The notes beneath the pieces were generated by a model. The model worked only from the letters and a program-made list of their open reading frames with translations, made no database searches and was not told where the DNA came from. Position numbers and translations under genes: made by a program. From positions 16,926,001 to 16,990,000 of the forward strand of contig CM114271.1 of the NCBI GenBank assembly GCA_050084515.1: a DNA stretch of 64,000 bases. Reading direction: 5' to 3'. The DNA is from Blasia pusilla. Lineage: Eukaryota. This document shows, one piece after another, positions 13,281 to 41,100 of this stretch (its first letter is position 1; the number at the start of each line of letters is the position of its first letter).

Positions 13281-13389
13281 GCTTCCTCTGTCTTTCACAT
13301 TGTCCGAGGCGATGAGGACCCCATCGATGGGTCCTGATCAGAGTTCCTGGAGAGTTGGTGATGTTGTTGGTGTGTAGGCACGGAGGGCG

Positions 13390-17240: not shown

Positions 17241-17559
17241 CGAGATGCGACTGGAGCTCGATGGCATGGAGAGAGTGATGAGGAGTCAGTGCTAGGATGG
17301 CACGCGTCAGCCTATTTAGGTATGTTGGCTATGGAGAGCCAGAGTGTGGAGACTTCGATGGCGAGGTCTAGTGGAGAGTCTTTGGATCCCGAGGCCAGTG
17401 AGGAGACGCCAGGTAGCCAAGATATTCATGATGATGGAGTAGTCTTGGAGTACCTTTGTACTGGCAGCGTTGCGAGCACCGTGGATGCTAGAGACCGGGA
17501 TCGGATCTTACACCGGGCCAGACGGTTGCGTTGGGAGGGAACACATGTTTTGAGGGTGT

Positions 17560-18890
17560 GGGAGGATGGTAGAGTACGCGTAGTGCCGCATCCTATGCAG
17601 AGAGCACGACTAGTGCAGCATGCCCAACGAGGAGTTGGGTCATTTTGGGGTGAAGCGAACGTACAGCTTGCTACAGATTTAGTATTGGTGGCGAGGCATG
17701 CAGACTAACGTATAGCACTTTGTTGCCAAGTGCATGGTGTGTGATCGGGTCCGAGCATCGTTCAATGCTCCGACCGAGCATCATTCAATGCTCCGACTCC
17801 ACATTTGCATCCATTACCAATCATGGGCTTAGGGTATAGATGGAGTTTGGATTTTGCAGGACCTTCGCCTTTGACGGATTGTCATAGTCATTATGTGTTG
17901 GTGATGGTCAAGCACTTCTCAAAGTGGATCAAGTTGGTTGCATTGCCTGACAAAGCGAGTGAGGGAGTAGCTTATGCCTTCCTTGACACAGTGTTGAGTC
18001 ATTATGGCGCACCGGCTGAGGTGTTGATAGACCAAGGTACCGAGTTTCGTGGTGAGTTCCAGGCCTTGTGTGATCAAGCGCTGATCGACCACCCTATGAT
18101 TTTGCGAGATCATCCCGAGGCGGATGGATTAGGGGAGAGAGTTGTGCAGACGGTGAAGAGGGGTTTACATAAGTATGGCTTGCAGAGAGGTCACCTAGGA
18201 GATTGGGACCTCCAGTTGCCCTTGTTGGCGATGGGATACAGATTCAGCAGACATCCTTAGCCTCTTTTTCACCGTACTTACTACTTTATGGCCGAGAGCC
18301 AGATTTACCTACGGCCATTCGTCGAGATGTTGGTGAGGTGCTGGACCTTGATGACCAAGATGTATGGATGCGAGCCTGTACTCAGAGGGCTGAGTTGTTT
18401 CGGAGAGTGATGCCCATGGCGTTAGAGAACTTGGCGATTGCGCAGCATCGGAATACGTTGAGGTATGCAACTATTTGGGGTGGTGGTTATCGACCAACTA
18501 TCCGGAGGTTTCACCAGGGAGATTATGTCTACTTGCAGCAAACGACACCGACGACGTTGGATGTGACTGTAGGGCGCACTATCGTGAGAGTGCGTGACGT
18601 TTTGCCATCCGGTGTTCTCTTGCTAGAGGGACGCGATGATATGGTATGGTATGGAAGGACCATGTGCGTAATTGTGCGCCATGTCACCTTCCTAACACTA
18701 ATGGTATAGTAGATCCAAGCTTAGCAATAGTTCTTGCAGGCTTGCGTTGTATGTTGTGTGGTTCTGCCTGTGGTGCGGCCACGATACTAGTCTGTGATGG
18801 ATGTTCGAGAGGTTGGTATATGGCATGTTTGACGCCACCTCTCATTAGGGTTCCTCGGGGATGATGGATGTGTCCTAGATGTACATAGAG
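17560..18890 (+). pseudogene. Element A DDE integrase with C-terminal PHD finger
   Basis: HHCC region, WSLDFAGP, DQGTEF, ADGLGERVVQTVK. Terminal CMLC...VCDGCSRGWYMACLTPPL...W-CPRC PHD pattern at about 18742-18885. Confidence 0.92.
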
Positions 18891-19078
18891 GAGAAACTAC
18901 GTAGGTTTTGATTCTGACTTTTTTTGTGACATGGATGACAGGAGGGCGACTAACGATGGGGCCACATGAGCACCCGGACTTTCTACTCTTAGCGTCCTAG
19001 AGATGTATGTCATGGTAGGTAGGGATAGATGACTATCTGGAGTTAGAGGGACCTAACCATCAGCTAGGGGGGCGATTG

Positions 19079-19846
19079 GAGATATTTTAGTACTTCTTGT
19101 CTTGTTGTTTGGATGCCATGAGTTAGCATGGGATCGTGCGTGTTTGTATGTGTGTTCGCTGATAGCGATGTATGTTGTGTAGCGATGTGTATGCGCACAA
19201 CAATTATCACGTTTTTTAAGATAGATCGATGAGATCTAGTAGAGCGCCTTTGTGAGTAGTGGAGGATAGGCTCAGTAGGTTAAGGATGACTTGCTGAGGC
19301 CCCGGGAAACCTAAGAGAGGAGGTTTTCCCTTCGTTTCGGCTCATTTGGAGCCATCTTGAGCAACTTACTATTTTAGGTGTATACCATTTTGAATATATG
19401 ATCGACTATCTATTTTTGGTAAGTGGCCCTTGACCTCCTACATCAGATCAAGAGCCAAGGAGGTGACTTGGGAGAATAGGTTACCATGGAGAGAGCTTGG
19501 GAGAGAGGAGGGGTATACCTCAAGGAGAGAGAGCTTGAGAGCTCATTCTCTCTTTGTTGAACCTCTTGGCATGAGGCGGCGGAGCTATGGTCCCTTGCCT
19601 TGTGAGTGTAACCCAAGCCTCTCATTAGGAGAGTGGGTTTGGTTTGACATGAGAGAGAGTGCACACCTTTGAGAGCTATGGTGTGAGACGGTGTAGAGAG
19701 AGATTGGATCTTATTTTAACAAGAGATATTTTAGTACTTCTTGTCTCGTTGTTTGGATGTCATGAGTTAGTATGGGATCGTGCGTGTTTGTGTGTGTGTT
19801 CGGTGACAGCAATGTATGTTGTGTAGTGATGTGTATGCGCACGATA
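19079..19846 (+). repeat. Element A 3' B1-AT-A2-B2 split-repeat block
   Basis: B1 19079-19202, spacer AT 19203-19204, A2 19205-~19722, B2 19723-19846 (B = 124 bp, offset 644). Confidence 0.93.
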
Positions 19847-21310
19847 TAGGCGAGGCCTTCGTCTATAAAGATGTGGCGGGGCCTCTGAGTGTTCAAAAGC
19901 CCCTTTGTTTGCACCCCTCGCGATGGCCCTAAAGTTGACACTAGAATGTGTTCTTTTGGCTTAAGAAAAGCTCCTACCAAGCGCCAAAATCAGATCTTAA
20001 GAGCCAATGCAAAAGCATTCCGAACTATAGTTCCAATTGAGCTCAAACCCTCCGCCCCAACCCCATTTCCCCCCATCCCCCCTCTTGGCGGTAGACCTAC
20101 TTTTGCTTGTTGAAGGACCTATTCGGGCTTTGAAAGACATCCTACCGCCCTTTCTAGGGCATTTGGAACTATAGTTCAAATGGAAGTTTATTGAAGGACG
20201 TTTGGAACTCTAATTCCAAATGAGCTCGGAAGTATTTGGTTTCTACCGCTCGAGATAGCCCTAAAGTTGACAACAGAATGTATTGATTCAGTTCTGGAGA
20301 AGCTCCTACCGAGCGCCAAAATCGGTCTTAAATGCCAATTTAAAAGCATTCGAAACTCTAGTTCCAAATGAGCTGGAAGCTTCCGGCCCCCCTATCCTGC
20401 AAGAATCTGGAACATCATCTTGGTAGTAGACCTACTGTTGCCCGTGAAAGGAGCTCTTTGGGCTTTGCAACATCACATACCGCCAATTAAAGGGCATTCG
20501 GAACTATAGTTCCAATCGAAGTTATATTTGACTTACAGAACGTCTTCTCCCACCATAATTGAATCTTAAGATCTAATTGGACTTTGACTAAGTATTGTTC
20601 TAAATGACTTTCAACCGGTAGGGCATCTAGGGACACAATCAAAACTTAGGTTCTCATTCTACATTTGTTTCCAAACTATTGGGATCTTAGGAGCTAATTC
20701 ATGGACATTCCGAACTACAGTTCCAATCGAGGATGGGGATTTCCCTTTATTGGACGCTTGCTACGGCCGAAATTGGATCTTAAGATCCAATCGGACTTAG
20801 ACTAAGCATGGCTCCAAATGAAGTTCAGCAGGCAAGGTAGTTAGGGCCATAATCAAAACTAAATGAGGTTCTAATTCTATATTTGTTTCCGAACTATTGG
20901 GATCTTAGAAGCCAATTCAAGGACATTCAGAACTATAATTCCAATCGAGGATGGGGATTTCCCTTTATTGGACGCCTTCTACGGCCTGGATCTTAAGATC
21001 CAATCGGACTTAGACTAAGTATGGATCCAAATGGCGTTCAACAGGCCCGGTAGTTAGGGACACAATCAAAACTTAATAAGGTTATGATTCTACATTTATT
21101 TGCGAACTATTGGGATCTTAGGAGATAATTCAAATGCATTCGGAACTACAATTCCAATTGATCCAGAGGTTGGCAAAGTTGAGGATGCAAGCACTAAAAG
21201 AAAAAATTATACACACATATCACATTAAAAGTCTATCCCACAATCATTAAATGATAGTAAAATATGCACATTGAATATATCAAATTTGGAACTCAAGTTC
21301 CAATTCGGGA
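19847..21310. repeat. Continuation of the GGAACTATAGTTCC repeat region, including ~230-bp tandem units
   Basis: Motif near 20021, 20162, 20202, 20351, 20500, 20711, 20930, 21141 and 21285. Blocks at about 20500-20710, 20710-20930 and 20930-21160 are clearly homologous. Confidence 0.75.
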
Positions 21311-24300
21311 TAATTAACAAAATTCCCTGACAATCATATTGCTTCACAATCTTTAGCTTCTATTCTGTGGAATATGTTACAGTTCTCGCAATTTTTAGCT
21401 TCCATTCTCTGCAATATGTCACAATTCCCGTTGTATATATTTACAAATATCTACTAAAGAAATTATAATTGTACATATTATATTTCCAATCGGAGGAGAG
21501 TCTAATGTGTTGCTATATTTATGACATCCTCCAGCTCAACCTAGGCAACATACTTCCTTAATCCATCCTCTTCAATATGCATGTGTTACATTTCACGTTC
21601 TATTTATAAATGTAACTAATGGCATCATTGTACAATATCATTCCAGCTACCTATTATCTTCTATGACTTCTCTTCCTGCTTAATCGCAAGAAGATCTCAT
21701 CCTTGGCAATGTCGGTAACGTCCTCCGGCTCAACCTAACGGACATCCTTCTGGAATGTATCGACGTACTACTCCAACTAAACCTTGCCTCTCTCGAAGTC
21801 AGAAAAATACTCATGAAATCCACTTGGAGATCTTCCTTTAAAGCCATGTACATAGTTTGGAACTTATCATTATTCAACTTCAAATACACCTCGTCAAATT
21901 TCTCAAGTCGATATCCTTAGCCTTTGAGATGATAAAACTGAACAAATGTTGCTTCACTACGTGTAAGTTGTACCTTGGGGCTCTTACTTCCGTAGAAGAG
22001 ACACGTCACGTACAAAAAAGTATAGGGTTTTTTAATTGGAATCAGGGGAAGACTTATAAAGAGTCATGGAAGAACTTTAGGATATTTTTAATTTACGGCA
22101 TCATTTATAAAAAAAAATGGGCATTGTTAATTCACAAGGTGTACATTTAAGATGTCCAAGAAAGTAAGGGGGGTTTTTTCTTAAAATGGTGGGCACACGT
22201 GTCAACAATTTATTGGTCCACGTGTCAATCTTAGAGCTAGACCAATAAATGACATGGATTTGTTAATTCATTTTGAATTTTAAATAAATATCTAAAATTT
22301 ATATATCTAACCTTATCTTCAACGTTGGCGGGAGAGAGTGAAGCCCGCGTGGGAGAGGGAAGGAATCTAGGTCGAAGCTCGAGGAAAGGATCTTAGCTCG
22401 GGGAAAGGAATGCATCACAGCTCGGAGAAAGGATCATGGCTCGGGGAAAGGAATGCAACTTGCAAAATGCTGAACGAATGTTAAAAGGGGAATGCTAATC
22501 GTTTAGCATTCTCATTCTCATTGTCTTAGTAGCGTCCAACCAAGGCGCAAGGATTAATATGTGAAAAGAGTCACAATTTTTTGTAGATGACAGCATTTGG
22601 GTCTGGAAGACGAACGGACTCAAGAGAGACTGGCTCTCGAGAGGGTCAAGTTTCCGATATGGATGTAGTAATTATCTTCTTATTCTTGTCTAGTCCGGTT
22701 CTCAGGTAATATGCATACCTCTAGCCCGATTGTGATTATCTAGGTAGGCTGCTAGAAGATAGAATGAACAGTTGCAACTACTCCCATCGAGTTTCCATCG
22801 TATTTGCATAAAACATGCAGCTCACCTGATATGATGGGGTTGCAGGAGGCAAGGCTGAAGATTTTCTCAAGGCGTAGCTTACATTCGTGAACCCAATCCA
22901 TTGGAGCAACTACCCAACATTGATACGTTGCCGCTTCTCACTCATATATTCCGTTTGAGATACACCGACACGTAGGAGACCATACAAGCACGAAGCTTGG
23001 TTCAACGTTCTCTAGTACTAGTATGACCTCCTTAAACCAGCTTGTGCTCTAGTCTTCCATTCATTTGATCAACCCAATTATCGACTTTCCTCTATAACAG
23101 TATATTGCAAAGTTTGGCCGTGAGGAAACTCACCATGATAGTTAATTATTGTGAGGGAAATAGTGGATTACCAGCCATAAGACATGAAGTGAGCTAGAGA
23201 CTAGGATATGTGTTGAGAGAAGAAGAAATGAAAAAGGAACTATATCAAAGCAGGGAGACACTCTCATACATTATCAATGCTATCTTTGTTCTGCCTAATG
23301 GTGATCTATATGGCTTTGGAGACATGATGCACCTCATAATGGGACGAAAGCAATTAATCCATTGGATAGATGCTCAACTACTTATGTCCTTGGAGATCAC
23401 CATGCATCTTTGTCATATGTCACAAATGTCTATAGCCACTACCAAATTCATGAAGATGGCTTGAAGTGGGATGATGTGAATAGGACTGACAAGAAGAATT
23501 GAGTTGGGCCTTAACGAATTGCTTCAAAGAGAGTGCAAGTGTATTTGCATGATATGTTTGAGAGAATGGATGTTCGTCATGACAAAAGCCTAGAGACCCA
23601 ACTGTACTTGGAGGTTTGTAGTGATTATATTGTCATGGGCATACACATCGCTATACAACATACATCGTTGTCATTGAACACACACACAAACACGCATGAT
23701 CCCATGCTAACTCATGGCATCCAAACAACGAGACAAGAAGTACCAAAATATCTCCAATAAAATAAGATTCAATCTCTCTCACAACACCATAGTTCTCACA
23801 TGTATGCACTCTCACATGTCTCTCTTAATGTCAAACCAAACCCATTTTCCTAATGAGAGGCTTAGGTTACACACACAAGGCAAGCAAGACCATAACTCCG
23901 CCGCCTCATGCCAAGAGGTTCAACAAAGAGAGAATGAGCTCTCAAACTCTCTCTTCTTGAGGTATATCCCTCCCCTCTCCCAAACTCTCTCCATGGTAAC
24001 CTATGCTCCAAAGTCACCTCCTTGGCTCTTGACCTGATGTAGGAGGTCAAGGGCCATTTTAAAAAAATAGAAAGTTGATCATATACTCAAAACGGTATTT
24101 ACCTAAAATAGTAAGTTCCTCAATATGGCTCAAAATGAGCCGAAACGAAGGGGAAACTTGCTCTCTCAGGTTTCCCGAGGCCTCAACAGGTCATCCTCGA
24201 CCTATTGAGCCTATCCTCCACTACTCACGAAGGCGCTCTACTAGATCTCATCGATCTATCCTAAAAGACATGAGATTTTTCGTGCGCATACACATTGCTA

Positions 24301-24489
24301 CACAACATACATCGTTGTCACCGAACACACACACACAAAACGCACGATCCCATGCTAACTCATGGTATCCAAACAACGAGACAAGAAGTACCAAAATATC
24401 TCCAATCGCCCTCCTAGCTAGTGGTTAGGTCCTTCTAACTCTAGATAGCCATCTATATCTACCTACCATGACATACATCTCTCGGATGC

Positions 24490-26285
24490 TGTCGTATAGT
24501 AAAAGCAGCCAATGTGTAAACTCCTTCATCGTTAAGTGTTAGATAGAGTTTTATTAGTATTAAGTAAATTTTCTTAGGAAAAGAAAATTCCCATGTTTAA
24601 ACCTCTTTATGATGCCTCTTTTATGTGGGCCCAACTTTAGGAAAAGAGGTAATAAATAAAAGATAACTTTATAAAAGTAAAGCAGTGAGGTTGGTGCTTT
24701 AATGAAAAACAAAAGTAGTCTTGGTTGGTGGCTACGTTAGTTGGGGTAATTTGGAAAATATCAAGTGGATAAAAGAGGATATTTTGGAAGAGATAAGAGG
24801 AAATCTACTTTTGTCAAAATATGATTGGCTAAGCCTTGAGAGAAAGCCATGTGGCACAAGATAAGATTACTCTATTTCGTACTCTTGTGGATCCCTTGTG
24901 AGTTTATAAAGAGGAGGGACCCTCAAGGGTTTATCACCTTCTATTCCACATCTTGAGTCTCTCGTGTCACTCTTGAGTGTATGGCTTTGGGATTGCTTGC
25001 TCTTCCAATGAGAATGGATCATCTCTCTTGGGAGAATAACTTAGCCATTGATATTCTTCAAGAGGTTTCTAGAGTGTGGTGTGTGCGTGGAGATGAGAAG
25101 TTTGTCACCTTAGAGGAGTTTAGTTATACTAAAATAGTGAATATTTTGGCTTGTTTCTTTCCCAATGAGAGTGGATTACCCCTCTTGGGAGAATAATTCT
25201 GCCAAAACCCATTCTTGAGGAGAGTAGAGAATGTCTGTCAAGCATGGATAGGGTGGAGCACGAGTTGTGCCCGACTTTCCTTTCCTCAATCCATACCATG
25301 TCAAGCTAATCTTTGTAGATAGGTACTAGTTCACTCGCTATTTAGTTTACCACTTTGGGAAGGCGTTCATGAATCAGGTCATTCAATCTCCAACTCCGGT
25401 GATCCTTCCTATCGTCACATATGGAAGGACATGGGATTGTACTTTGTATGTCTTTATAGAGCGATCCAAGGATGTCAATAGGACTGCTCAAGTAGGGTTT
25501 AACAGTAGTTATGCCATCTTCCTCGTGTACAAGCGTAAAGTAGTTTATAGGGATTTTATAGTTAGGAATTTCAGGGTCCGATGTTACGAAGAAGTGATCA
25601 CCTCGGCACTTCCATTTTTGATACCTGTCGTGAGAGAATGGAGGGTATACATAATAATTTTGTATTAAAAAAGGAGAACTTCTTAAAGAGTTCACCTTGC
25701 ATCGATCATGTCTACCGCAGCTAGAAGGCCTGCCCCTACTCAAAGAAAGGCTCTCGACATGACAAATGGTGCTTCCATTGAGAGATCTTTGAGGCGGTAG
25801 ATTGTGTTTGCAAGTTGGAGTCTTATCAAGATGACTAATTTTGGGAGTACTTCATCAATGGAAACTCAGGGAGTTGAGGATCTTCTCCGAACTTTGACAA
25901 TATTGTTGAGCCAACAAGGAGGAGTTCACATCGGAGAGCAAAGATCAACAAGGGCTCTCCAAGCGATTGTAAAGAAGTTGGGGAGATTTGATGGTAGGAA
26001 CATCACCAAGTATGTTCGAGAATACGTCTATGAGATGGAGGTAAACTGTGTACCCGAAGGTGGTATGGTGTCAAGTTTTGAATTAGCTATAATACCAGAG
26101 ATCCGTAGTCAAGTAAAGAAGTTGAAAGCAGAAAATCCAAAATCCTGGGAGGAGTATGAGCAAATGCTGAAAGGAGAATTCTTCGATGATGATGTGGATC
26201 GGGTGACTAAGAGGAGTTTTCTAGAATGGATAGAGCAACGTCCAGGGAAGGGAATGACTCCAAATGAATTTTTGCGTGAGTTTAG
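24490..26285 (+). mobile_element. 5' fragment of a conventional LTR retrotransposon (LTR ~24490-25764, PBS, truncated gag ~25831-26285) nested in element B
   Basis: Starts TGTCG exactly where element-B homology stops and ends ...CATGACA. The PBS follows 2 nt later. Gag-like ORF GRFDGRNITKYVREY...SWEEYEQMLKGEF. Confidence 0.8.
25767..25784 (+). promoter_or_regulatory. Primer-binding site, probably tRNA-Thr(AGU)
   Basis: TGGTGCTTCCATTGAGAG matches the complement of the plant tRNA-Thr(AGU) 3' end as I recall it (...CTCTCAATGAAAGCACCA), with one mismatch. Confidence 0.75.
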
Positions 26286-27913
26286 GCAATGTAACCAACT
26301 GTATCCACTTCGAGAAATGCTCAACCATCACTAACACATAACGACTATGGCGCTTCGTCAAAGACAAAGGTCCTGCAAAATCCAAACTCCATCTATAACC
26401 TAAACCCATGATCGGAAGTGGATGCATTTGGCAACAAACAGTTGAACGTCAATCGACATTCCTCGCCACCAATACTAAATCTAGAGCAAGTTGTACGTCT
26501 GCTTCACTAAAAAATGACCCAACTCGCTTTGTCACGAAATATAACCAACTGTATCCACTTCGAGAAGTGCTCGACCATCACCAACACATAACGACTATGG
26601 CACTCCATCAAAGGCAAAGGTCCTGCAAAATCCAAACTCCATCTATAACCTAAACCCATGATCAGAAGTGGATGCAATTGTGGAGTCGGAGCCTTTGAAC
26701 AATGCTTGGACTCGATCACACACCATGCATTTGGCAACAAACTGTTGAACTTCAATCAACATGCCTCGCCACCAATACTGAATCTAGAGCAAGCAGTACG
26801 TCCGCTTCACTCAAAATGACCCAACTCGGTGTGGGCATGACGCACCAAACGTGATCTCTACAAAGGATGAGGCACTACCCGCACTCTATTATTTTCCCAC
26901 ACTCGCAACGCATGTGTGCCCTCCCACCGGAACTGTCTGGCTTGCTGTAGATCATATCCCGCTCTCTAGCACCCACTATGCTCGCAACGCTGCCAGTACG
27001 CAAGTACTCCAAGACCACTCCATCGTCGTGAATGTCCTAGCCACCTATCATCTCCTCACCGACCTTTGGATCTAAAGACTCTCCATCAGACCTCGCCATC
27101 GAAGTCTCAGCAATCTGGCTCTCCATAGCCAGCAAGCCCAAATAGGCTGATGCATGCCATCTTGGCACCTACTCCTTATCACTCTCACCATATCAATGAG
27201 ATCCAATCACATCTCGCTGACTCGGGCATGGGTTACGGCTCAAACCATCTGCATCCTAGTTGAGCGTCCCATGTCTATGCACCACTTGGAAGTCATACTC
27301 TTGCAACAAAAGAGCCCACCTCGCAAGCTTCCCTGTAAGCTTGCCGGACTCCATCAACCACTTAAGTGGATGATGATTAGTAATTATGGTAAAGGGATTG
27401 CCGAATAGATAACATCTAAAATGTGCGACAGCCCACACTGCAGCCAAGCACTCACCCTCATACGAGCTATAGTTTGCCTCTGCAATGTTGTTCGAGCGAC
27501 TAGCGTAAGCCACCATAAACTCTCTACCTTCATCGTCATGTTGGGTGAGCACGGCTCCGAGCTCCAACATGCTCCAATCGGAATGCAACCGGAAAGGACG
27601 CCCCCCTGATCGGTCTCCTCAATATGGGCGCACACATCAATCTATCCTTGAGCATCTGAAATGCTCTCTCTTGCTCATCCCCCCAATGCCACTCATGATC
27701 CACCTTGGTCATCAAGGTTAGCGGCTTCGCAATCAAACTGAAACCCTTGACGTACCGTCGATAGAAGATCGCCAATCCCGTGAGTGCACGAACTCGACTC
27801 ACATCTGTAAGGCATGGAATGCGTGAAATAGCCTCTACCTTCGTCTATTGCACACCAAGGCCCCCTGGATATATCGTATGACCCAAGTACTCAATCTAGC
27901 CATAGAAGAACTT

Positions 27914-30900
27914 TATCGTGCGAATCCACATCGTCATACAACATACATCGCTGACATACCATACGCACATACATACATAACATAGACGAGAGTATCCACA
28001 AACGCTAGTGTACCACAACTGAAATCCGTGAAAGACCTACTATCATAAAACACGTTTACAATCACATACAATCGAGCCAAACCCACTCCACGATGGGAGA
28101 ATCTAGGTCGAAGCTTGCAGGAAACACCATAGCCAAGAGCTCTACTCACTACCAAGGCTAACTCCCAACGCAACAGCTCAACTCAAAGAATCGATCGTTT
28201 TTGAGGGCAAGCCACCCTTATATCCTCCAACCTAAGAGCAGGCCCTACCGGGAAAGTCACCCCAAGTGAGTAACCCCAACCCTATGTATGGAACCGCATC
28301 TCTACCAAGCCACTACGGTCCTACATAAGGAATGGCCTCTACCAAAGACACCATACTCTACGACATAATCCATATGGTCATGACAATTGTCGTGTATAAT
28401 CCACATCGTCATACAACATACATCGCTGATATACCATACACACATACATACATACATAACATAGACGAGAGTATCCACAAACGCAAGTGTACCACAACTC
28501 GCCCCCTAATCAAGGCGGTTAGGTCCTCTAACTCCCAAGTAGCCCTATACATCTACTACATGCTATACACCTTCTTGGGTGCCCGAATCAGAAGGTCGGG
28601 TGCTAGGTTGCCCCATCGTTAGTCGCACATCTGTAATCCATATCATGCAAAGATCAAGTCATCTACCTCTCCTAAGTACATCAAGGACAAACCCATCTTC
28701 CAGTAGGAACAACATCCAAACGTGGAGTCAAACACATCATGTGCCAACCCCTAGAACACCGATCACACACCAACATACGGGCTGCGTTACCAGCAGACCC
28801 ACACAACACGCACTTCAAGCTAGCACGTATCATGGCTAAGCTTGGGTCAACAGTACCATCCACATTTGGAAGATGACATGGCGCACAATTACGCACATGG
28901 TCCTTCCAAACAACTCCATCACGACCCTCCAACATGAGAACTCCAGAAGCTAACACCTCACGCACTCGTAAAATAGTGCGGCTTGTCGTCACATCCAACG
29001 TTGTCGAGGCAATCTGTTGCAAATAGACATAGTCCCCCACATGGAACCTACGAATCGATGGTCGATAACCTCCACCCCGAATGGTTGCATACCGCAACGT
29101 ATCCCCTGTGTTGAGCAATGGCAAGATTCTCAAAGGTCGCTGGCATAACTCTCCAAAGAGCTCCGCCTGGCGAGAACACACCCTCATCCACATCTACGGG
29201 TCATCAAGGTTCACCACCTCACTAGACTCCCGACAATTCTTTCGGCAAGTCCGGATCTCGGCCGTATAATGTAGAAAATAAGGTGAGAAGGAAGCCAGGA
29301 TGCATGGCGATCGAACCTATACCCCATGGCTAACCATGGCAACCGAATATCCGGTCTCCAAGATGCCCTTCAGAGGCCATACTTGCGCAATGCCCTCTTC
29401 ACCCGTCGAACCACACGCTCAGCCAAACCATCCGCCCTGGATGATCTTCGAGACGTGGTCCGATGATCAATCAACGCCTTGTCACACAAGACCGAAACTC
29501 ACCCGAAACTCAGACTGGTCGGTCAAGACTTCACCTGGTGCACCAAAATGACTAAGCACTCTATCCAAACGCATACGCCGCGTCCCCCACTTGCCTTGTC
29601 CGGTAATGCCACCAACTCAATCCACTTGGAGAAGTGCTCCACCATCACCAACACATATCGATGATGTAAATACCAACGGTAACGGTCCCGCAAAGTCCAC
29701 ACTCCAACGGTAACCCAACCCCATAATAGGCAAGGGGTGTAATTGTGGTGTAGGGGCATTAAATGATGCCCTCACCCGGTCACAAACCATACAACGTGAC
29801 ACCAACTGCTGCACTTGAGTATGCATGCCACGCCACCAATATCGCCAAGGAGTAAGCTATACGTACGCTTTACCCCAAAATGTCCCAACTCCTCATGGGC
29901 ATGTCGCACAATGCGCTCTCTCTGAGCCAAATGTGGCACTACTCGTACTCTACCATCCTCCCACACGCGGAGAATATGTGTTCCCTCCAATCGATACCTC
30001 TTAGCACGTTGAAGAACACGGTCTCGCTCCCTGGCACTCACTATGCCCGGCACCCTCTTGGTCCGGGAACTCCAACACCAACACATCATCATGAATATCA
30101 CGCTGATCCGTACCACCATCTCCAACCTTAGGATGTGAAGGCTGGCCATCTACCCTCTAACTAGAGTAAGATATCATGTGGTCCTCCATACTAGAGTCCA
30201 CCCCTAACCAACATAAAAAGGCGGATGCATGCCAACCTGGCACCATCTCCTCATCAACCTCGCCATGCCATCTAGCCCCGATTGTATCCTCTTGGCTAGT
30301 ACATGGGTTCCTACTCAACCCATCAAGATCAAGGTTGGCAACTCCGGTCTATGTACCACCTGGAAGTCATACTCTGTAAGATAAGAGCCCACCGTGCAAG
30401 CTTCCCTGTAAGCTTGTCCGACTCCATCAACCACTTGAGTAATTTGGTGATCGTAACAAGGGTAAAGCTGTGTGCCAAACAAGTAACACCTAAAGTGTGC
30501 CCACCCCACACTCTTGCCAAGCACTCTCCCTCATATGAACTATAGCGCGACTCCATTTGCATTATTCGAACGACTTGCATAGGCCACCACAAACTCCATG
30601 TGCTCATCATCATGTTGTGTCAACACCGCTCCAAGTCCCAACCTACTCCAATCGGTGTGTAATCGAAATGGGCGCCCTCTGATAGGTCTCCTCAAGATAG
30701 GCGCCGCCACCAATCGGGCCTTAAGCTCCACAAAAGCTCTCTCCTTATCATCTCCCCAGTGCCACTCTTGATCTGATTTCAGCAATTGGTTCAAAGGCTT
30801 TGCCATAGCACTAAATCCCTTCACATACCTCCGATAGTAGTTCACCAATCCCATGAATGCTCGAACTCTACTCACATCTATCGGACGCGGAATAAGTGCA

Positions 30901-33900
30901 ATAGCCTCCACCTTTGCTTGCTTTGAACTCCCAAACCACCTGGATAGATCACATGACCCAAGTACTCAACATCCTCATGGAAGAACTTAAACTTTCCTGG
31001 ATGCAAACGAGACCATGAGCTTTCAACCGCTCAAACACCATCTGCAAATGTATCGATGCTCCTCCACCGTATTCTTTGAACACCAAGATATCATCAATGT
31101 AACACCGAACAAAATCCAACCCCGCTAGGATCTCGCCCATCACTCTTTGAAACTCGGCAGTGCATTCTTCAACCCAAAGGGTAAGAATTTCCCTTTGGTA
31201 CAAACAATCCTTGCCATGAGAGTTGACACCCCAAAATGTTGTCTTGGCCTTGTCACTCTCCCGAATCGGCAATTGATGGTATCTGGCCGAAGATCCAAAA
31301 ATCTTGAAAATCTTTGCCTGCCCCCCACCATCAAAGATCTCTCGTGTAGGCATGGCATACCTATCGGCCTTGGTTTGCCGATTGATAGACGGTAATCTCA
31401 CACATCCGCCTATCCGTGTAGTTGCCATGCATATCCTTTTAGCGAGCATGACAGTGGGATGATGCATACTCTCCATGCGACAACTCCACTAATCCACCTC
31501 CAAAAGGTCCAACGTCCTACTCGAATCAGGTCCCTCTCCATATCACTATATCGGTAGGGGACGACGGAAGATTGGCGTATCACTAGCCAAATCAATCCGT
31601 ATACCAGGTCCAACAGAAGAACCCAACTCCTTCATGCTAAAGGCAAAACAACTCCTATAAGCACGAGGAACTATGTCAGCGTCGTTTCTCACCTCCCGTA
31701 AGCTTGAGCCCAAGTAATGGCTCCCAAGTCTCCTCCTTTGGCATACTAGATGGAGAGGATGATGCCATTGGCGCACTCATAACCCCTCACAAGATGATAC
31801 ACCCTTAGCTACACCATCATCATCGAGCAAATAACTCCTCCACCAGCATGAGCAACCAACTCCACATGCCCAACCATTACATCCCATTTACTCCAAGGAT
31901 GCAAAATACTACTCTCCGCCCTGACCCGATGCCTCTACCGCCCCGGTAGCCATCGAGCTCATTACAAGGGGTGGAAGACCCATGACATAGTCCGAAGTCG
32001 ATTTGCTCGCCATACCAAGACTCAAAATCCAAGTCAAACAATTCAGGTCCATGGCCCGACCCAACACATGACGTCGTGAAGCCTCGAGAAATAGAAGCAA
32101 CCGCTCTCACGCCAAGATAGTAAATCCCATCGCACGCTCTCTCTCATCGGCGTTAGGCTCCCACCAACCGCCGCGCATGAGAATCCCATACAAGCCCCGG
32201 ACCACCTTCCTGTAGGCATGTAACGGGAAAACTCACAAATGTGGGTAGTGCCATCCTAGGTCGCCCACACGGTTCACCACCGCCATGGGTGACCGATCAA
32301 TAACCCTCACCACTTGAGAAAGTCGCCAAGATATCAAGATACTATCCTTCGTAAGGCGAGGATCCCGCCTTGCATCATATGCTCGACGTAGAACCTCCTA
32401 GGCAACAAGTTTGTCCACCACAAGCGTGAAGCGATGTGCACGCGAGCCAACTCATGCACTGCATCCAACAACACCGCTGGTCCAATCCAAGACCGCACCT
32501 CATGAACACTCGCCATCATCCGGGTCCGAGTGTCACCCAACAATGGAACATTCTCCAGAATGTAAGCTAGAGCACGTGCCTGATGAACCTGAAGATGTCG
32601 TAACACCCTTAACATCTCCCAAAACAATCGAGACCTAGGGTCATGTAATCCCTCACCACGACCAAAGACGTGTATGACCCGACATGGCCATCCAAAGCAA
32701 TCACCAAATCCACAGGACCAACCCTCTCAAGGTCCTACGCCCCCAACAATGCAATGTGTGATGGTAAAGCACGCTGGTACCCACGAATAGCTGATGGCGG
32801 CAACAACTCAAGATATCTCCGCATCAACCGCATCTGGAATGGGCAAGGCTCAAGCTCTGACCTCCGAATACCCAAACCAATACATGCCGCCTTTCCCAAC
32901 ATCAAAGGCTGGGCACCTGAGTCTAACAAGACTCTATCTGGTCTATACACGACTGTAGGACTCACCAATCGAAGATCCCACTCGATTGTCCAACATACAT
33001 ACACCAGGTGTAAGCCTCTCACGATCAATGGCTGGCGGGTGGTAATGCATCCATCTTCGCCTTTGCACCGCCAAGTAGCACCGGTACTCAATGCTACTCG
33101 ACATAGAGGGTTGCTCCACCGCAACATCCTCATCCACCTCAACACGTAGCAAGAATAACACCCCACGTTCACACAATGTGGCTCCTAGTTGAAATACAGG
33201 GAGCTAAGTCAACTCCTAAAGCCGTCGCTCCGTGGCGAAAACAATGGGGATCCCAACACCTTTGAAGTTGCCATCTGCAATACTACATCGATCTTTGCAT
33301 CCGTGTCTACTACACGCGATGTAGATGCCTCGGTCCCCACTAATCGGCTCAATAGGTCGCTGAGAGGAACCATGGATGGAGTCCTAAGCACCTCGGACAA
33401 CAAGAATGACTGGGGAAGCCTAGCCTCGCCTCCCTCACCCCTCTGTGGGTCCAACTCCCACAGAGCACCACGTGGCTCGACGCTCGAGTGGCTCCTCTCA
33501 GAATCTGCGGTGATGCCTCAACTGGCCGCACTCGCCATATAAGAGAGATCATCCCCTCCATAAGAGGTGGAAGCCCCGCTCCCGAACCGATCTATCTTTG
33601 GATATCACCATAGTAGCCAACTCTGCTCCAACTGCTCAATCTGGCGACCATAGTTGACTCTGTCGTAGTGGTAGGGGTAGCCACCGAGGCTCTCCAACCA
33701 CTGGTCCACCTCTACCACCCCTACCACCTCTACCACCTCGGCCTCTCGGAGCTACTCCACCACGGCCACGGCCTGATCTCAACTCTAGATGAAGATCAAA
33801 GCAACGCTCTCGAGGATGACCTAGTCTCCCAATGATCACACTGAAGTTGGGGCCGATCGAGGCCCATCCTCCAAAGTCCGTCTCCCATCCTCTTGGGGAC

Positions 33901-36803
33901 AAAACTTCCTAACATGATCACCTCCACATGTCCAACATGATCGTCCCTGCTGGGGCAGCAAATGAAGGCAATGGTCTCTGCACAAATGTCCTCTAGGACT
34001 TGATCGAGGTCGCGTGTACCCCCACGACTCCCACTACTACTACCACCACCACTACTACGAGAGGCGTGAGGTGGGCGGTGAACACGAGAAGTAGTAGTTG
34101 TATCCCTACTTAATGCGGATGTCACCACTCTCTCCTTCACCATGTTAAGCTCAATCTTCTCGAGATAGAGCAAACACATGGGTCAATGTGGGTGAATCAT
34201 CACTCATAAGAGTAGCATCACGTACCCTACGGGCGCAAATCTCGCCCAAGATCCCATACCAAAAACCGGACTCGCCTGATCCTCAATCACACCTGGGTAA
34301 TCGAAATCAGCGTGATACGCGTGTATGCCTCATTTAAGACTCTCACCGGTCTTTCGCTCAAAGTCCTGAAGATTCCTCAACTTCTCCGTCTTCACTCCTT
34401 GATAGTTCTTCTTCAACCTCTTGAAGAACTGCAATCGGGCTAACGATGGTGGGGCACTACCTCCACTAGTACCCCCACTAGTACCTCCACTAGTACCCCC
34501 ACTACGGCTCGTGACTCGTACCACTCACTCGGGTCTGGCCGTGGCATAATAGGAGCACTACTACCAATACCACCATGGGTGATAGACACATAGCCTGGAG
34601 ACCAATATTGTCTCCATGCCTCAATCTCAACAACATGGTCCTTCCTAAACTCATGGTAATCATCCATGGGTGGTCCTTCCAAGTGTCTTTGAAACAACCC
34701 CTTCCAAGCCAAGAAGGGTGTAAACAACGTGGCGTTTCAACATCGCATATCACACCACGTATCAAACTTCGCATGAAGTCCTCCAACTCAATGGTACCCT
34801 TTGCATCCGAGTATCGTCGTGGGCCCTTCATGGCCCCATATCCACCGCCCATGTCCCGGATCAATGGAGCCGCAACACTCGATAACAACGTAGAAGACTC
34901 GGTGTTTGGAACACCCTCGTCCTCCTCTTCATCAACCGTCGAAGTGGAAAAGGTAGCCGATACCTAAATCCACTCCGTGTGAAACCACCAATGTCCGCAA
35001 CCACGGTCCTCAACCAGACCACCCGACTGACTCGTGATGACCAACGCCGATGCCGCACCACCACCAAATTACCCAAGTGGCGTCGATGTCGCTCTACTAT
35101 TGTAGCTCTACTAGCTATGGGTGTAGGCAACCTAACCTCTCATCACCACAAGAAGACTCCCACGGTCTACTGGTCATCACTCCAGCCTCACTATAAGTAG
35201 CACACAGGAGTAACACTACTATGGAAATCAGCGTCAACCCTAACAATGGGCGCGCAAGCAAGAAGCACAATGGAGGGGATCCAAACACAGGAAATCCAAC
35301 GATAACCCTCCAATCGTAAATGGAAATCAAGGTAACACAATCCACCAAACGTGGTGCCCTCTGAATCCACAAAACCCACCACACAATTCTAACGCAATAG
35401 CTACTCCGCCGAATGGTCGATGACGTGCTAGTCGAACTCAAAGACTTGAAAATATCACTGCATGGAGAGGCTACACCGTACTATGCGCTAGAGGTACATC
35501 AACCAAAAACCTGAGATGCATAAATCGCCTAACACATCTCGAACAAAGACCAAATGAGCTACAACAACAGACACCTTTGGCATAGTTAAGAACTCGGCAG
35601 TTAAGCGTCCTCCAGGCAGAATAGCCCAAAGATGGGTGACCAGTTATGCAAAACTCAAATCCCAAATCCTGCAAAAATTGCCTCACGCCCAAGCAAGCAA
35701 GCAAGCTTGCTTGCTTGCTCCTTGCTCCTTGCTCCTTACTCCGCCTCTCACGCCCACTCGCCTCGAGTTGCCTCGAAGCCTCATAGCCCGAGTTGACCAC
35801 CATAGCTATCTCCCCACAAAAACTCAGCTACAACCGAGCTCCGTACTCCGAGCTAAAAATCAGACAAACTTGCTGTCCATACACCTCTAGAACCGCAAAT
35901 CCGACAGCGCTTCCGCCAAGTTTCATGCACGCAGAAATCCGCAACGCTCCACGCACTCGAGCAGATAGCTTCACATGAGATCACAATACAAGTAGCAATA
36001 GGAACCTCTCACCCGATCTTTCCTGCAGGAAGAACTTAACGCGGGGAGCATGTTCGGTATCGTGTGCGGATTCCAGCCCAAAATCTTTTTGGCTTTTCTG
36101 TGCGTTTGATTCTAACAGTTTGTAACCCCCGAGACAAGATGATGAACTTCAACAGAGCTTCCGCACTCCAAGCTCTCCACATCAGAAAACTGTCGAACAC
36201 GACGAGAATCTTCAATGCTTGATAACTTCCAACTCCCTTGACGAAATCCGCGATCTGGTAGCGTTGGAAAGCTCTCAGCAAGGCGCTTCTTTCCCAACCA
36301 ACCGCGCACCAGATTCACACCTCCAACATAGGCCACAAGCCACGAACATCCACGGTTGAGTACACAATCAGCCCTAACCAGATCCTACTGATCTATAATC
36401 GAAGCTACCATCGATCAACGTCAGTTCTTTGAGTGAAATCTGTGAAAGACCTACTGTTATAAAACACGTTTACAATCACATACAATCGAGCCAAACCCAC
36501 TCCACGATGGGAGAATCTAGGTCGAAGCTTGAGGGAAACACCATAGCCAAGAGCTCTACTCACTACCAAGGCTAACTCCCAACGCATAACAGGCTCAACT
36601 CAAAGAACCGATCGTTCTTTGAGGGCAAGCCACCTTATATCCTCCAACCTAAGAGCGGGCCCTACTGGGAAAGTCACCCCCAAGTGAGTAACCCCCAACC
36701 CTATGTATGGAACCGCATCTCTACCAAGCCACTACGGTCCTACATAAGGAATGGCCTCTACCAGCACACCATACTCTACGACATAATCCGTATGGTCATG
36801 ACA
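27914..36803 (-). mobile_element. Element C: full-length member of a second family with the same architecture, inserted into the RT of element B
   Basis: ACTT is duplicated at 27910-27913 and 36804-36807, and removing C restores the RT sequence (gaagaacttgcacttg). A1 ~36435-36803, B1 28388-28499, AT 28386-28387, A2 28021-28385, B2 27914-28020. Domains: gag ~34950-33600, protease VLLDSGAQP ~32920, MTase ~32830-32000, RT YIDD ~31095, RNase H ~30600, integrase ~29900-28850, PHD 28820-28681. Many frameshifts. Confidence 0.93.
32000..32830 (-). pseudogene. Element C DNMT3-like methyltransferase (motifs IV-X)
   Basis: GPVDLVIA..GWPC (32693-32682), LFWEMLRVL, YILENVP, RLWWTNL, EPNADERERAMGF, RRHVLGRAMDLNCLTWIL. 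Confidence 0.88.
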
Positions 36804-37763
36804 ACTTGCACTTGCTAGATGTAGCTTCACCCCATGTAACTGCAATCGTCGAAACACCTCCTCTAGATGTCGCTCATGCTCCTCAACCGTGGCACTAAAG
36901 ACTACGATGTCTTCAATATAATACTTAGCAAAATCCAGACCTGCCAAGATCCTATCCATGACCCTGGAAAACTCAGTCAGGGCATTCTTTAACCCGAATG
37001 GTAAGAACCCCCACTCGTACAAACAATCCTTCCCGTGAGGATCGATGGCCCAAAATATTATCTTTTGCCTGTCCTCCAATGTGATAGGCAATTGATAGTA
37101 TCCGGCTTGCAAATCCAATGAACTGAAGACCTTTGCATGCCCAATCGCATCATAGATCTCCACAGGGGTGGGCATGGCATACCTATGAAACTTCGTTTGC
37201 CGATTGATAGGTCGGTAATATCCACACATCCGCCTATCCGTCCAGTTGCCATGCACATCCTTCTTGGCGGGCGTGATAATAGCAGATCCATACTCTCCAT
37301 GCGACATCTCCACTAGTCCTGCTCCAACCAAGTCCTAGCTCCTACTCTGAATCAAAGCCCTCTCCATATCATTGTATCTGTAGGGTCGTCGAAAGATCGG
37401 CGTGTCACTCGACAACTCAATACGGATCCATGGACCCTTCAACGTACCCAAATCACGCATAGTAAATGCAAAACAACTCCTATAACTCCTAAGGAACTAG
37501 TATATCCAACGCCGCTCTCCTCCTGTCAACTTAGGGCCCATATCTGGCTCCCAAGTCTCCATCATGACTATGGTAGGACTTTCTGGCGCGGATGTTGGTG
37601 GTTGCTATGGTGCAACCCTGTCTCGGACAATAGAACTCTCATCCCCATGTGCATTATCCAGAACCATGCTTGATGTTGTGGCTATCATCTCCTGGTATAC
37701 CTGCAAAATATCCCAAGAAGTCCAAGGGTGTCTCTCTCGATCACCCCTGGTGTGTTGATCTCC

Positions 37764-38192
37764 TCAAGTCTCGCCCGCAGCTACTGCCTCAACCATCTCG
37801 ATAGGCATGGGGCTTACCAACGCAACTTTTGTGATATGTCGCATCCTCAAACGACGTTGCTCAGCTATTCCTAAGCTGAAAATCCATATCAAGCAGTTTA
37901 GGTCCATCGCCTGACCCAAGACATCACATGGTGATCCCTCCGATAGTGACGGTACTACGGTCACTCTTGTGGGAAATCCCATCGCTCGCTCTTGCTCATC
38001 GGCATTGGGCTCCACCAACCTCTGTACCTGGTAATCCCAAACCAAGCCAAGTCCGACCTCCTTCAATGCATAGGAAGCGGGAAAACTCACCAATGTGGGA
38101 AAGGCTGCTTGTGGCATGCCAATCCTGTTGACCACAGTCAACGGCAATCGATCATCGTGCCTCAGTGCCTGTGATCGACGGCCCTGAGGCAC
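37764..38192 (-). pseudogene. Element B methyltransferase C-terminal remnant (TRD, motifs IX-X)
   Basis: FPTLVSFP...EPNADEQERAMGFPTRVT...DVLGQAMDLNCLIWIF. Upstream motifs I-VIII are deleted. Confidence 0.85.
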
Positions 38193-41100
38193 TCGATCAC
38201 AGGCACCCTAAACGGCCCGAAGCTCCTCAGTCGAGCCCCAAAGCGGCACCTCTCCTCGATGGACTGATGTAGCTACCACGACACTCCTCTCCATAAAAAT
38301 ATCATGAACGGGAGTATCCTATGCATAGACATGTCCCTCAATCAAATCACTAGGCCAAGTAATGGCGATGCTAACTGCTGCTAAGGTCGCCATCTCTCTT
38401 GGCCGTCGCTCGATCATTGCACTTGTGAATCGAATGGGTAATGAGCTAAGGCGCCCATTACTTGACTACTATCCTAGTCTATAGGACGTTGACTCCTCCC
38501 AATAATCCAGGGAAAACCCCATCGGGTATAACACTACTCCATCAACCAAGACATTGTAGGACTCTGCATCAATCATTATCACCTTGGCTCGCACCACGGA
38601 CACATATGTAGGATGTCCCGAGAAAATCCTCACCACAACCTCTTGTCGGGTGATATACTGTATGGTACTTGCTCCACCCAAGGATTTCTATATTCGGAAT
38701 GGACAACGCTCCACATCGACTCTCGTCAAGCCCAATCCTCTTAATGACGCTTTCCCCAACATCAGGGGTTGCGCTCCTGAATCCAACAAGACGCGCTCCG
38801 GACTAAAATCTCTACTCCGAGACTCACCAATTGGAAGACCTCTCCTTGGTTATCCAGCAACACAACACCAGGAGAAGCCATGGCATGCTCTATTGCAGGT
38901 CTAGCGGGCATCTCCGCCATCCTAGTACTCGCAGCCTGCCATGAATCTGACGTGGAGAGCCCGAGCATCCGCTCCAAGGGCAGGTCCATCACTTCCTCTG
39001 CAATCACCTCTAACGTGATGCAAGAACTCCAACTCCACGCTCACATAGCGTAGCAGCCAGCCATAAAAACCTTGGTAGGCGTACCTCCCAACGTCATAAC
39101 ATCGGAAGCAAAAAATAAAGGAGCGCAGTACACAACAACGTGCTCGACACATGCCCCTCTTGAGCATTAGCAATAGGAGTCATCGCACTTGCTTCTCCCA
39201 TTGCCCTCCATGCTTGCACACCAACAACATCACCAACTCTCTAGGAACTTTGATCAGGACCCATCGATGGGGTCCTCATCGCCTTAGACAACATGAAAGA
39301 TTGAGGAAGCCTAGTTTGTTTCCTGGCTTCCCCTCGTTGTGGATCCAACTCTACAGCTGCTCCACTCGTCACAACTGCGGCGGCCTTCATCTGGGTAATC
39401 CCACACATCCAACCAGGATCTTCCATATCTCAGGCTGCTCCATATGATGTCAATGCCACGGATCCGGCATCGGGTAACCTCAATGCCATAGCGGCAATCT
39501 ACTCTTGTAGCTGCTGTAAGTGAGCAGCCATCCCAGCCTCATGCCTCGCGTCTCCCTTGACGCGACTAGGTGGTGGGACTCTACCTCCTCCACGGGCACC
39601 TCCATCACCCTATTGGGCAACTCTAGCTCCTCGTCCCCCAACAGGACCACCTGGTGCACGATTTCTAGGCCCACCCGGACTGGCTACTCGCTCTTGTGCC
39701 CTCTCTGGCCCTCGGTTCAGATGTAACTCAGGGTACAAACTAAAACACCTCGCGCATGTATGACCATACCTCTGACAATAGTCACATTGATAACCTCCTG
39801 GTGTAGCACCATCTCCTCCTCCATGCTAAGGCATACGTCCATGACCCTGATGAGTGCTGTCACGCTGATGATGGGCTCCACCACATGACCAACAAGTAAT
39901 CGTAGGCGGCTGTTGCTGAGCCGTATATGAAGGCGTAGGTCTCAGTGGCACGGACTCTCGGTATCCTCCTTGAGCTCGTGGTGCCATAGTCGACCTATCT
40001 CAGAGTCCACGTTGCTGCACTGGTGGTGCTAACAATCGTGACTACTCTCGCCCAGAACCCATGGTGGCTACGCTCTCCTCCGCCATGTTGCGCTCAATAT
40101 TCTCGGCGATCCTAAAAACATCTCTCAAGGAAGGAAAGGTGTTCATAAGGAGCACCTCCTTTCGCATCCGCGTCCGTAGGGTTCGCTCCAGCATCGCGTA
40201 CCATGACTGGATTCCCTGAGCCTCTGTCACCCACTGAGTGACGTTGATCAATCGGCGCAAGCAAGTGTAAGCCTCACGAAACTCTCACCCGGGCACCTCT
40301 AGAAGTCATGGATGCTCCGCAACTTCTCCGTCCGTAGCCCCGGGTAGCTCACCCTCAACTCAACGAAGAACTCAACCACGGGGTTGAACCTGGGACGAAC
40401 CCGACTAGACGGTGCAACTGCTCGAGTGCAAGTGACCCCTCCTAAAACATCACGAGTGGAAGAGGAAATAGCCTCTCCTCACTCCTCCTCCTCCTCATCT
40501 AGGAATGGTTCCATCCATGACACATAGTGTGGGTCATAGTAGAGTCGCCATGCCTCAATCTGCTTGGCATATCTGTGGGAGAACTCATGGTAATCGTCCA
40601 TGGGCGCCCTCTCCAAATGCTGGAACATACCGTTCCATGCTATAAATGGGTTGAACTCTCTAGAGTTCCTAGCCCGCTGTGAGTCACACCAACTCCTAAA
40701 CTCCGCAATGAAGTCGTGTAGCTCTATAGTGCCTATAGCATCCGAAAACCTACAGAGTCCTCTACTCCGGTCGTCCATCTCGGACACCCAACTGATATGA
40801 CCACTCAATGTGTATGGTGGATCACTAACACACTCCTCTATATGCTCCCCCTTGTCTGAAGATGACACAGAAGGAGATCAAGGTGGTCTCTCACGTGGAG
40901 ACCCTCGAAACCTCGCACCACTCCGGATAAACCCTCCAAAGCTACTCTCAGGTCCACTACCTCACCTCTCAAAATCCCAAAAGGATGCCATGATGGCCCT
41001 TCTGCCCCTCTCACATGATCCCTCTCAATCTCACGAGTAATCCCTCAATCACTCAAAATAAACATGCGGCACTCAATCTACACTCTCTCACTGAGATGTG

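Follow-up and report, generated by a model that had tools for sequence, protein, structure and literature searches.

A palindromic junction made of both insertion ends inside gypsy-type retroelements with split direct repeats in Blasia pusilla DNA

A layout of split direct repeats has long counted as typical of retroelements that use a tyrosine recombinase. In the split-direct-repeat elements of the DIRS order (Ngaro, PAT-like and VIPER), the repeats are arranged as A1–internal–B1–A2–B2, and DIRS elements are described as making no target duplication (PMC8969392). A DIRS repeat structure together with Gypsy domains has been drawn for KnitGypsy-Dnmt3 of Klebsormidium nitens (de Mendoza et al., 2018; PMC5890265, Fig. 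4c legend), and the integrases of prototype foamy virus and HIV-1 are reported to cleave the palindromic junctions between the two long terminal repeats (LTRs) of 2-LTR circles into 3′-processed ends (PMC1180852, PMC1905944). In this study, a stretch of 64,000 nucleotides (nt) of Blasia pusilla DNA (contig CM114271.1, positions 16,926,001 to 16,990,000 of the forward strand; the whole stretch is called the window) was found by self-comparison and direct reading to hold three related retroelements, A, C and D. Similar to the split-direct-repeat DIRS elements, they carry an internal B1|A2 junction that equals the joined outer ends; unlike these tyrosine-recombinase elements, they have a DDE integrase, TG…CA ends and target duplications of 4 base pairs (bp). 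The junction is a palindrome and, on its sequence, is an internal heritable copy of both insertion ends, placed head to tail around a 2-base spacer (…GACA-NN-TGTC…).

In coding-strand sense, the repeats of these elements follow the order Y1 – internal – G-run – X1 | Y2 · X2, with a Y of 370-520 bp and an X of about 105-125 bp. The elements, their repeats and their target duplications lie in the window as follows.

9493-19846, plus strand: element A, full layout
9489-9492 and 19847-19850: target duplication TAGG of A
9493-10008, plus strand: repeat Y1 of A
19079-19202, plus strand: repeat X1 of A, preceded by a G-run at 19066-19074 and finishing CACAACA
19205-19721, plus strand: repeat Y2 of A
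19722-19846, plus strand: repeat X2 of A, finishing CACGATA, followed by TAGG
36803 down to 27914, minus strand: element C, full layout
36804-36807, minus strand: 5′ target duplication AAGT of C
36434-36803, minus strand: repeat Y1 of C at the 5′ end of the element, beginning TGTCATG and finishing ATTTCA
28388-28498, minus strand: repeat X1 of C, beginning GTTGTGG straight after the G-run and finishing CACGACA
28020-28385, minus strand: repeat Y2 of C
27914-28019, minus strand: repeat X2 of C at the 3′ end of the element, finishing CACGATA here and …GACA in other copies
27910-27913, minus strand: 3′ target duplication AAGT of C
~42243 down to 23631, minus strand: element D, ~85% identical to A, without a recognisable 5′ end
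23631-24406, minus strand: 3′ block X1|Y2·X2 of D, 87.9% identical to the 3′ block of A, with X2 finishing …ATGACA at 23631

The split-direct-repeat layout, A1–internal–B1A2B2, is complete in A, in C and in the metagenome locus L018; only the 3′ block is visible in D and in locus L044, and X2 is truncated in L038 and L039. By self-comparison, the Y1/Y2 and X1/X2 pairs were 95.4% and 93.3% identical in A and 94.7% and 93.1% in C, and the X pair of D was 91.5% identical. The Y and X pairs are about equally alike in each element, as they should be if every transposition renews both. C is nested in D: when D is aligned to A, the matches stop at 36803 and 27913 and overlap by a few bases of A, the AAGT of D flanks C on both sides, and the uninterrupted homologous site in A reads GCAAGTGCAAGTTCTT. 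Further, 62 D-family contigs of the public run X1 pass straight through the insertion point of C (loose end at 27913). What the initial annotation took for a separate element B (23631-24490) is the 3′ terminus of D, interrupted by C (27914-36803). The lineage is very abundant in the host, as 33,149 contigs of one run align to 901 bases. An (ACAT)n-like microsatellite lies in X (28431-28466 and 27950-27975), where contig cover falls; the read alignment skipped it as a repeat. The sense strand is G-rich and C-poor, with a strong GC skew over 10001-20000 (positive, A) and 26001-42000 (negative, C and D).

The insertions begin at the TG of Y and finish at the CA of X. Target duplications of 4 bp were found in five of the five insertions with both ends readable, namely AAGT (C), TAGG (A), TCTC (L018), TACA (L037) and TGTG (L054). 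A 5-bp duplication was rejected, since it fits A (ATAGG) and not C or L018, while 4 bp fits all five. The right end reads …GACA in L018, L037, L044, L054, L063 and D, and …GATA, a C-to-T change, in A and C. Twenty-one contigs of the public run X6 with unlike flanks start matching at 27916, and their consensus has TG just before this position, that is, …GACA in element sense. Y forms the left end and X the right end, and X was missing at the left in all 12 readable 5′ ends. The earlier claim that the junction consists of the right end and the left end of the element with a 2-bp spacer is borne out by the duplications of all five insertions.

The junction was read directly in the three elements, both as the palindrome at the X|Y boundary of C and as the decayed copies that the initial annotation had already placed at 19200-19207 and 24271-24284.

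28383-28390: junction palindrome ACAATTGT of C, at which the X1 end (…GACA) meets the Y2 start (TGTC…)
19200-19207, plus strand: junction of A, ACA-AT-TAT, ACAATTAT, with TG decayed to TA
24271-24284: junction of D, TGAGATTTTTCGTG, the reverse complement of CACGAAAAATCTCA, decayed to CACGAAA-AA-TCTCATG

The plus strand of 28381-28394 reads TGACAATTGTCGTG. In the sense of C (minus strand), the CA of X1 occupies 28389-28388, the spacer AT 28387-28386 and the TG of Y2 28385-28384, giving a sense-strand junction of …CACGACA AT TGTCATG…, while the junction of A stands in the context …CACAACA AT TATCACG… (19196-19211). The junctions of A, C and D differ without any insertion or deletion, and the palindrome sits at the exact X-end/Y-start base in all three X-Y-X blocks of the window. 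As a bare string, ACAATTGT is not enriched, occurring once in the window vs. 1.46 times expected from shuffles, and neither is the looser pattern GACANNTGTCAYG at ≤2 mismatches (30 matches in the window vs. 32.5 expected). Its significance therefore comes from its position, as the same bases are the outer ends of the element, fixed independently by the target duplications.

Metagenome loci, fetched via the alignment of related proteins, were used to evaluate the conservation of the junction. All occurrences of TGTCAYG up to 2 kb downstream of the pol match were collected from 54 loci, whatever the bases upstream of them. An X-end motif ending in CA (TA in L038 and L039) was found exactly 2 bases upstream in 12 of the 21 occurrences (L005, L006, L014, L018, L021, L023, L024, L028, L038, L039, L058 and L059), and the remaining 9 of 21, judged by eye, had no X-end motif at any offset. 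L025 is a thirteenth locus (CCGTGACA GC TGTCACA). L021 and L023 are identical in sequence, and L038 and L039 nearly so; together the 13 loci represent about six further groups, and about seven sequence groups share the conserved junction and its spacing. The spacer has a length of 2 bases in all 13 junction-bearing metagenome loci and in all three window copies, with the following sequences.

GC: L006, L014, L021, L023, L024, L025, L028, L058 and L059 (9 loci)
AT: L018 and two window copies
GT: L005
AC: L038 and L039
AA: one window copy (D)

Hence the free variation of the spacer that would have counted against the initial reading was not seen, its length being fixed at 2 and its sequence being mostly GC. 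Of the invariance looked for in the spacer, that of length stands, in 13 loci and three window copies, while that of sequence does not, as GC, AT, AC, GT and AA all occur. L014 carries a perfect 22-bp palindrome GACCGTGACAGCTGTCACGGTC (15122-15207 region). A second GACAGCTGTCA was observed 64 nt beyond this palindrome, with G-runs between them, just before the contig end, and L014 may represent a lineage with very short repeats.

Public-run contigs were then aligned to 27800-28700. GC at 28386-28387 was found in contigs of two other organisms, one contig each, and in the likely source organism C at 28387 occurred in 20 contigs and G at 28386 in 2, the majority being AT; the junction was thereby read in contigs of three organisms. 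No other change or indel appeared at 28383-28390 among the matches listed, outside of which lie 41 letter-change and 9 indel rows. One or two transitions separate AT, AC and GT from GC. From these letters, the common form looks like CAGCTG and AT like a variant derived by transition. CAGCTG has two symmetrical CHG sites, so deamination decay would be a simple explanation, and it is possible that the AT subfamily is itself active. The AT spacer initially emphasized is present in C and A, but as the common form CAGCTG takes its place.

X2 was searched for past the junction in L005, L006, L014, L021, L024, L025, L028, L058 and L059, where either the contigs were cut or nothing was found. Contig joints that skip from X2 to X1 were not used, as one X aligns to both copies. 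In L059 (3235-3790), the pol end, a G-run, X|Y and the post-Y1 sequence follow one another, with internal sequence on both sides of the repeat unit; the element is either tandem or a chimera of the metagenome assembly, and this order was not counted as evidence.

Candidate reverse-transcription signals were located around the repeats.

28499-28507, minus strand: polypurine-like tract AGGGGGCGA of C, adjoining X1 on its upstream side
36424-36434, minus strand: candidate self-primer binding site ACTCAAAGAAC of C, at and after the Y1 end, complementary to 36598-36608
36598-36608, minus strand: arm GTTCTTTGAGT of C, in Y, 174 nt upstream of its complement, candidate RNA 5′ end
9833-9845, plus strand: arm ATTCTCTCTTTGT of A, in Y, complementary to 10006-10018 (the Y1 end and just beyond)

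The G-run (AGGGGGGCG or similar) adjoins the X1 start, and not Y2, in A, C, D and many metagenome loci, and X2 of L018 begins at the first base after the G-run. The G-run is the likely place of the plus-strand primer, and the X start would therefore be an end of the complementary DNA (cDNA). No tRNA-type (TGG-type) primer site was found after Y1. Self-priming is known from LTR retrotransposons of the Tf1/Sushi group and from the plant Tcn1 clade (PMC6317226). Like them, the window elements have no tRNA-type site, and a sequence adjacent to the repeat is complementary to a stretch in the repeat, making it a candidate self-primer site. In C the complementarity covers 11 nt and scores 24, against a test threshold set a little lower, at 22; in A it covers 13 nt. 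In each family, a single shuffle out of 500 got to the threshold. The distance from arm to site is 174 nt in C and 173 nt in A, though BLAST cannot align the two Y families. Arm and site are retained in the C-type loci, L038 and L054 changing two positions on both sides, while in the distant locus L021 the arm/site complementarity was not above shuffles. A copy of the post-Y1 sequence (CTCAAAGAAC) also occurs in Y just upstream of the arm GTTCTTTGAG (36598-36625, minus strand, and the C-type loci), and this copy and the arm form a local hairpin mimicking the primer/primer-site duplex.

With the G-run and the self-primer-like site so placed, the repeat unit of reverse transcription is probably X·Y, with the palindrome in its middle, and the inserted Y–internal–X|Y·X would be a circular permutation of X·Y–internal–X·Y. 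The last bases of Y are CA, and a TG follows the first 2 bases of X, so that the Y·X junction reads CA-GT-TG (C, L038) or CA-AT-TG (L044), as would be expected from a blunt …CA end joined to the plus-strand start. Y·X is less regular than X|Y, with 17 extra bases in L018, indels that distinguish A from D, and letters that change from contig to contig. This irregularity fits a junction made afresh, and is suggestive only, given the age of the copies and the indels that are not rare in the rest of their sequence. By its placement, X|Y belongs to the transcribed part and is passed on as a template rather than being a scar of ligation, and Y·X is the one that looks freshly joined; on this point the initial reading is changed.

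The layout, the TG…CA ends, the 4-bp duplications and the conservation of junction and spacing were read in the copies themselves, and from them we infer the joining and the cleavage. The most economical model, and the best explanation overall, would be an integrase that cuts the palindrome in joined or circular cDNA; in our judgement, it has an even chance of being right. In this model, plus-strand synthesis would begin at the G-run in front of X, and the RNA's own 5′ end would prime the minus strand at the end of Y, as in Tf1. The reverse transcriptase (RT) would build X·Y as a conventional repeat unit that carries the palindrome mid-unit, and joining of the outer cDNA ends (Y·X) would then yield a circular or head-to-tail molecule. 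The integrase would skip the outer cDNA ends, its proposed cut target being the palindrome …CGTGACAGCTGTCACG…. It would nick each strand of the palindrome after CA, with 2 bases between the nicks, and so leave recessed CA-3′OH ends with 2-nt 5′ overhangs, a geometry that the initial annotation had stated correctly, and its appeal to the cleavage of foamy virus LTR–LTR junctions likewise agrees with the literature, where the same is reported for HIV-1 (PMC1180852, PMC1905944). Insertion with a 4-bp stagger would then give the Y…X termini and leave one X|Y and one Y·X junction inside. More broadly, the elements might be described as "permuted" LTR retrotransposons, in which a DDE integrase cuts a mid-repeat palindrome (…GACA-GC-TGTC…) and joined cDNA is the obligatory substrate throughout the lineage; this generalization is tentative, and we would sooner expect it to fail than to hold.

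Several points weigh against cleavage of the palindrome in joined cDNA. The mechanistic steps are all derived from genomic copies. None of the 12 readable 5′ ends has the form Y·X|Y–internal–X, the product of cutting the other palindrome; since a two-unit circle has two identical palindromes, a simple circle model leaves this polarity unexplained. We speculate that the polarity could come from limited extension at one end, or from integrase action while the right-hand repeat is still single-stranded. Seven loci end as internal–X–flank without a following Y·X, two of them with intact duplications: these short forms, Y–internal–X, are L037, L047, L051, L054, L063 (minus strand), L066 and L071, of which L037 and L054 keep their 4-bp duplications. 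Such copies could have arisen by deletion between X1 and X2 (comparable to solo LTRs), from one-unit circles, from cuts in both repeats, or as a second integration product of another pathway. The covariation of arm and site was not significant, as 314 of 500 shuffles do as well as the 2 double-sided pairs observed (12 sequences, 86% of cells pairing). The indels of Y·X may postdate insertion, the A/D alignment taking 866 columns for 854 and 858 bases (~20 positions in excess). Furthermore, the C-type metagenome loci are close kin of the window element and not independent lineages, and the full layout is confirmed within the A/D and C families only, L025 (2.5 kb downstream) and L021 having no clear X2.

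The polarity is accounted for directly if the junction serves as a template only, as has been proposed for Ngaro, PAT and DIRS elements. X|Y would then be a template or splint from which RT makes the missing outer parts of Y (left) and X (right), and the integrase would act on ordinary linear DNA that already starts with Y and ends with X, so that no palindrome cleavage is needed. The layout A1–internal–B1A2B2 is that of the split-direct-repeat elements, a built-in polarity fits the absence of the other permutation among the 12 5′ ends, and the Y pair and the X pair of one element match equally well. However, no standard series of strand transfers was found, on reasoning, that gives a full X after Y2 from G-run and post-Y priming, and the exact 2-base, usually self-complementary spacer is left unexplained. 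We therefore consider a template-only role unlikely, while taking it seriously.

The short forms bear on another possibility, in which the palindrome, as an RNA hairpin, marks the site of a second plus-strand primer. The TG of Y would then be made by RT and the CA of X by long-range 3′ processing of a linear X·Y–internal–X·Y cDNA, the short form Y–internal–X being the main product and the long form a by-product. Consistently, short forms are common (7 loci, two with the 4-bp duplications TACA and TGTG), and no other non-coding stretch is as well conserved between the A/D and C families as the last ~40 nt of X. Yet a short form has no downstream Y, its RNA would have no 3′ repeat for the first strand transfer, and it therefore cannot found a lineage; moreover, the X end is not purine-rich, and X1/X2 deletion accounts for the short forms equally well. 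Such a priming-site role has, in our estimate, a small chance of being correct.

The encoded proteins speak against membership in the DIRS order. The coding remnants of A and C were assigned with Pfam.

14799-18861, plus strand: coding remnants of A, broken by stops and frameshifts
14799-15362, plus strand: cytosine methyltransferase fragment of A (PF00145, E 4e-7)
15963-16499, plus strand: RT of A
16869-17705, plus strand: RNase H of A
17745-18257, plus strand: integrase core (rve) of A
18640-18861, plus strand: PHD finger of A
28684-32726, minus strand: coding remnants of C
32337-32726, minus strand: methyltransferase fragment of C (PF00145, E 3e-5)
30952-31488, minus strand: RT of C
30332-30965, minus strand: RNase H of C
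29620-30149, minus strand: integrase zinc domain (H2C2) of C
28684-29193, minus strand: PHD finger of C

The pol order is RT – RNase H – integrase in A and C, and the same order was found in the intact relatives L035 and P0084. The best named homologues come from the liverworts Calypogeia, Riccia and Marchantia and the charophytes Closterium and Chara, and rve is present in most of the 120 homologues among the matches listed. In the intact locus L035, the second frame encodes RT, RNase H, G-patch, integrase and PHD domains, while the first (3-6254, plus strand) has at least 2083 residues, very large for a retrotransposon, and gave no Pfam match at E 0.01, gag and aspartic protease included. 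Likewise, the ~4.8 kb upstream of the methyltransferase fragment of A (10015-14800) gave no Pfam match, including to gag or aspartic protease. A methyltransferase domain was also found in relatives, e.g., at residues 813-896 of the metagenome relative P0084. It lies upstream of RT in both window families and between RNase H and integrase in P0084, and judging from these positions it has either moved or been acquired more than once in the lineage.

A true DIRS-order element, with a tyrosine recombinase acting at the junction, would share the repeat layout and only that. No tyrosine recombinase was found by Pfam in the sense-strand frames of ≥45 amino acids of A and C or in the two long frames of L035, and PF00589 occurred in none of the 120 homologues among the matches listed. 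All five insertions carry the 4-bp duplications that DIRS elements are described as lacking (PMC8969392). With no recombinase found and duplications present, these elements are not members of the DIRS order, and the initial appeal to an integrase is upheld by the DDE integrase. On sequence, the first frame of L035, which has no recognisable domain over its at least 2083 residues, might hold a very divergent enzyme; the DIRS-order reading is nevertheless highly improbable. An accidental palindrome, arising from an adjacent solo Y·X fragment, a second element or host-repaired ends, fits the finding that the 8-base string is not rarer than chance in the window and is practically dismissed by the recurrence of the same junction, with the same 2-base spacing and in the same place, in all three window blocks, in 13 metagenome loci of several groups and in contigs of three organisms.

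The window elements share gypsy-type domains, a cytosine methyltransferase within pol and a DIRS-like repeat arrangement with KnitGypsy-Dnmt3, for which section 9 and the Fig. 4c legend of the published account give no ends, target duplications, junction sequence or mechanism (PMC5890265). The closest named relatives of the window elements are liverwort proteins, unlike KnitGypsy-Dnmt3 of Klebsormidium. Set beside it by description, the elements appear to be kin of KnitGypsy-Dnmt3, in a gypsy-type lineage with its closest named relatives among liverworts and charophyte algae. Beyond PMC5890265, the titles and abstract openings of the literature named no gypsy-type element with this layout, and the words PHD, Marchantia, methyltransferase and Klebsormidium are all absent from the plant LTR survey PMC6317226, which therefore leaves this lineage out. 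Of the initial reading, the joined ends, the integrase and the fixed spacer length are retained, while X|Y is no ligation scar, AT looks derived, and the layout was already known from the Klebsormidium element (PMC5890265). The structure is real and conserved, and its layout had been glimpsed before in print without a mechanism.

Similar to the retroviral 2-LTR junction, the palindrome of the window elements is built from both ends of the element. The two differ in origin, as the retroviral palindrome arises by ligation of the outer cDNA ends, whereas the window palindrome is encoded inside the element. They also differ in spacing, with 4 bases between CA and TG in the retroviral LTR–LTR palindrome vs. 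2 in the window elements.

The other features of the window are unrelated to the elements or neighbour them. Tandem repeats occur at 4013-4336 (period 45-48 bp, within a Ser/Pro-rich open frame), 20482-21199 (~213 bp period) and 56814-57169 (52 bp), none related to the elements. The neighbouring genes, which with the protein homologues suggest a land plant, probably a bryophyte, are as follows.

853-1907, minus strand: host gene for an amino-acid transporter (Aa_trans)
51734-55991, plus strand: host gene for a SYF1-type splicing factor, several exons
59104-59757, plus strand: gene with a DUF4218 domain, which we take to be a domain of plant CACTA-type transposase genes

The elements lack one defining feature of LTR elements, the same repeat at both ends. 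Standard LTR finders expect identical repeats at both ends and would therefore mis-annotate them. Their joined-ends junction is nevertheless conserved to the base across distant hosts. Joined or circular cDNA has been debated as a substrate of retroviral integration since the 1980s, and is usually deemed a dead end for retroelements. If palindrome cleavage in joined cDNA is true, these elements would represent a natural lineage that uses this form as its integration substrate, and they would show that the split-direct-repeat layout can arise without a tyrosine recombinase, in a lineage living in liverworts, charophytes and other algae.

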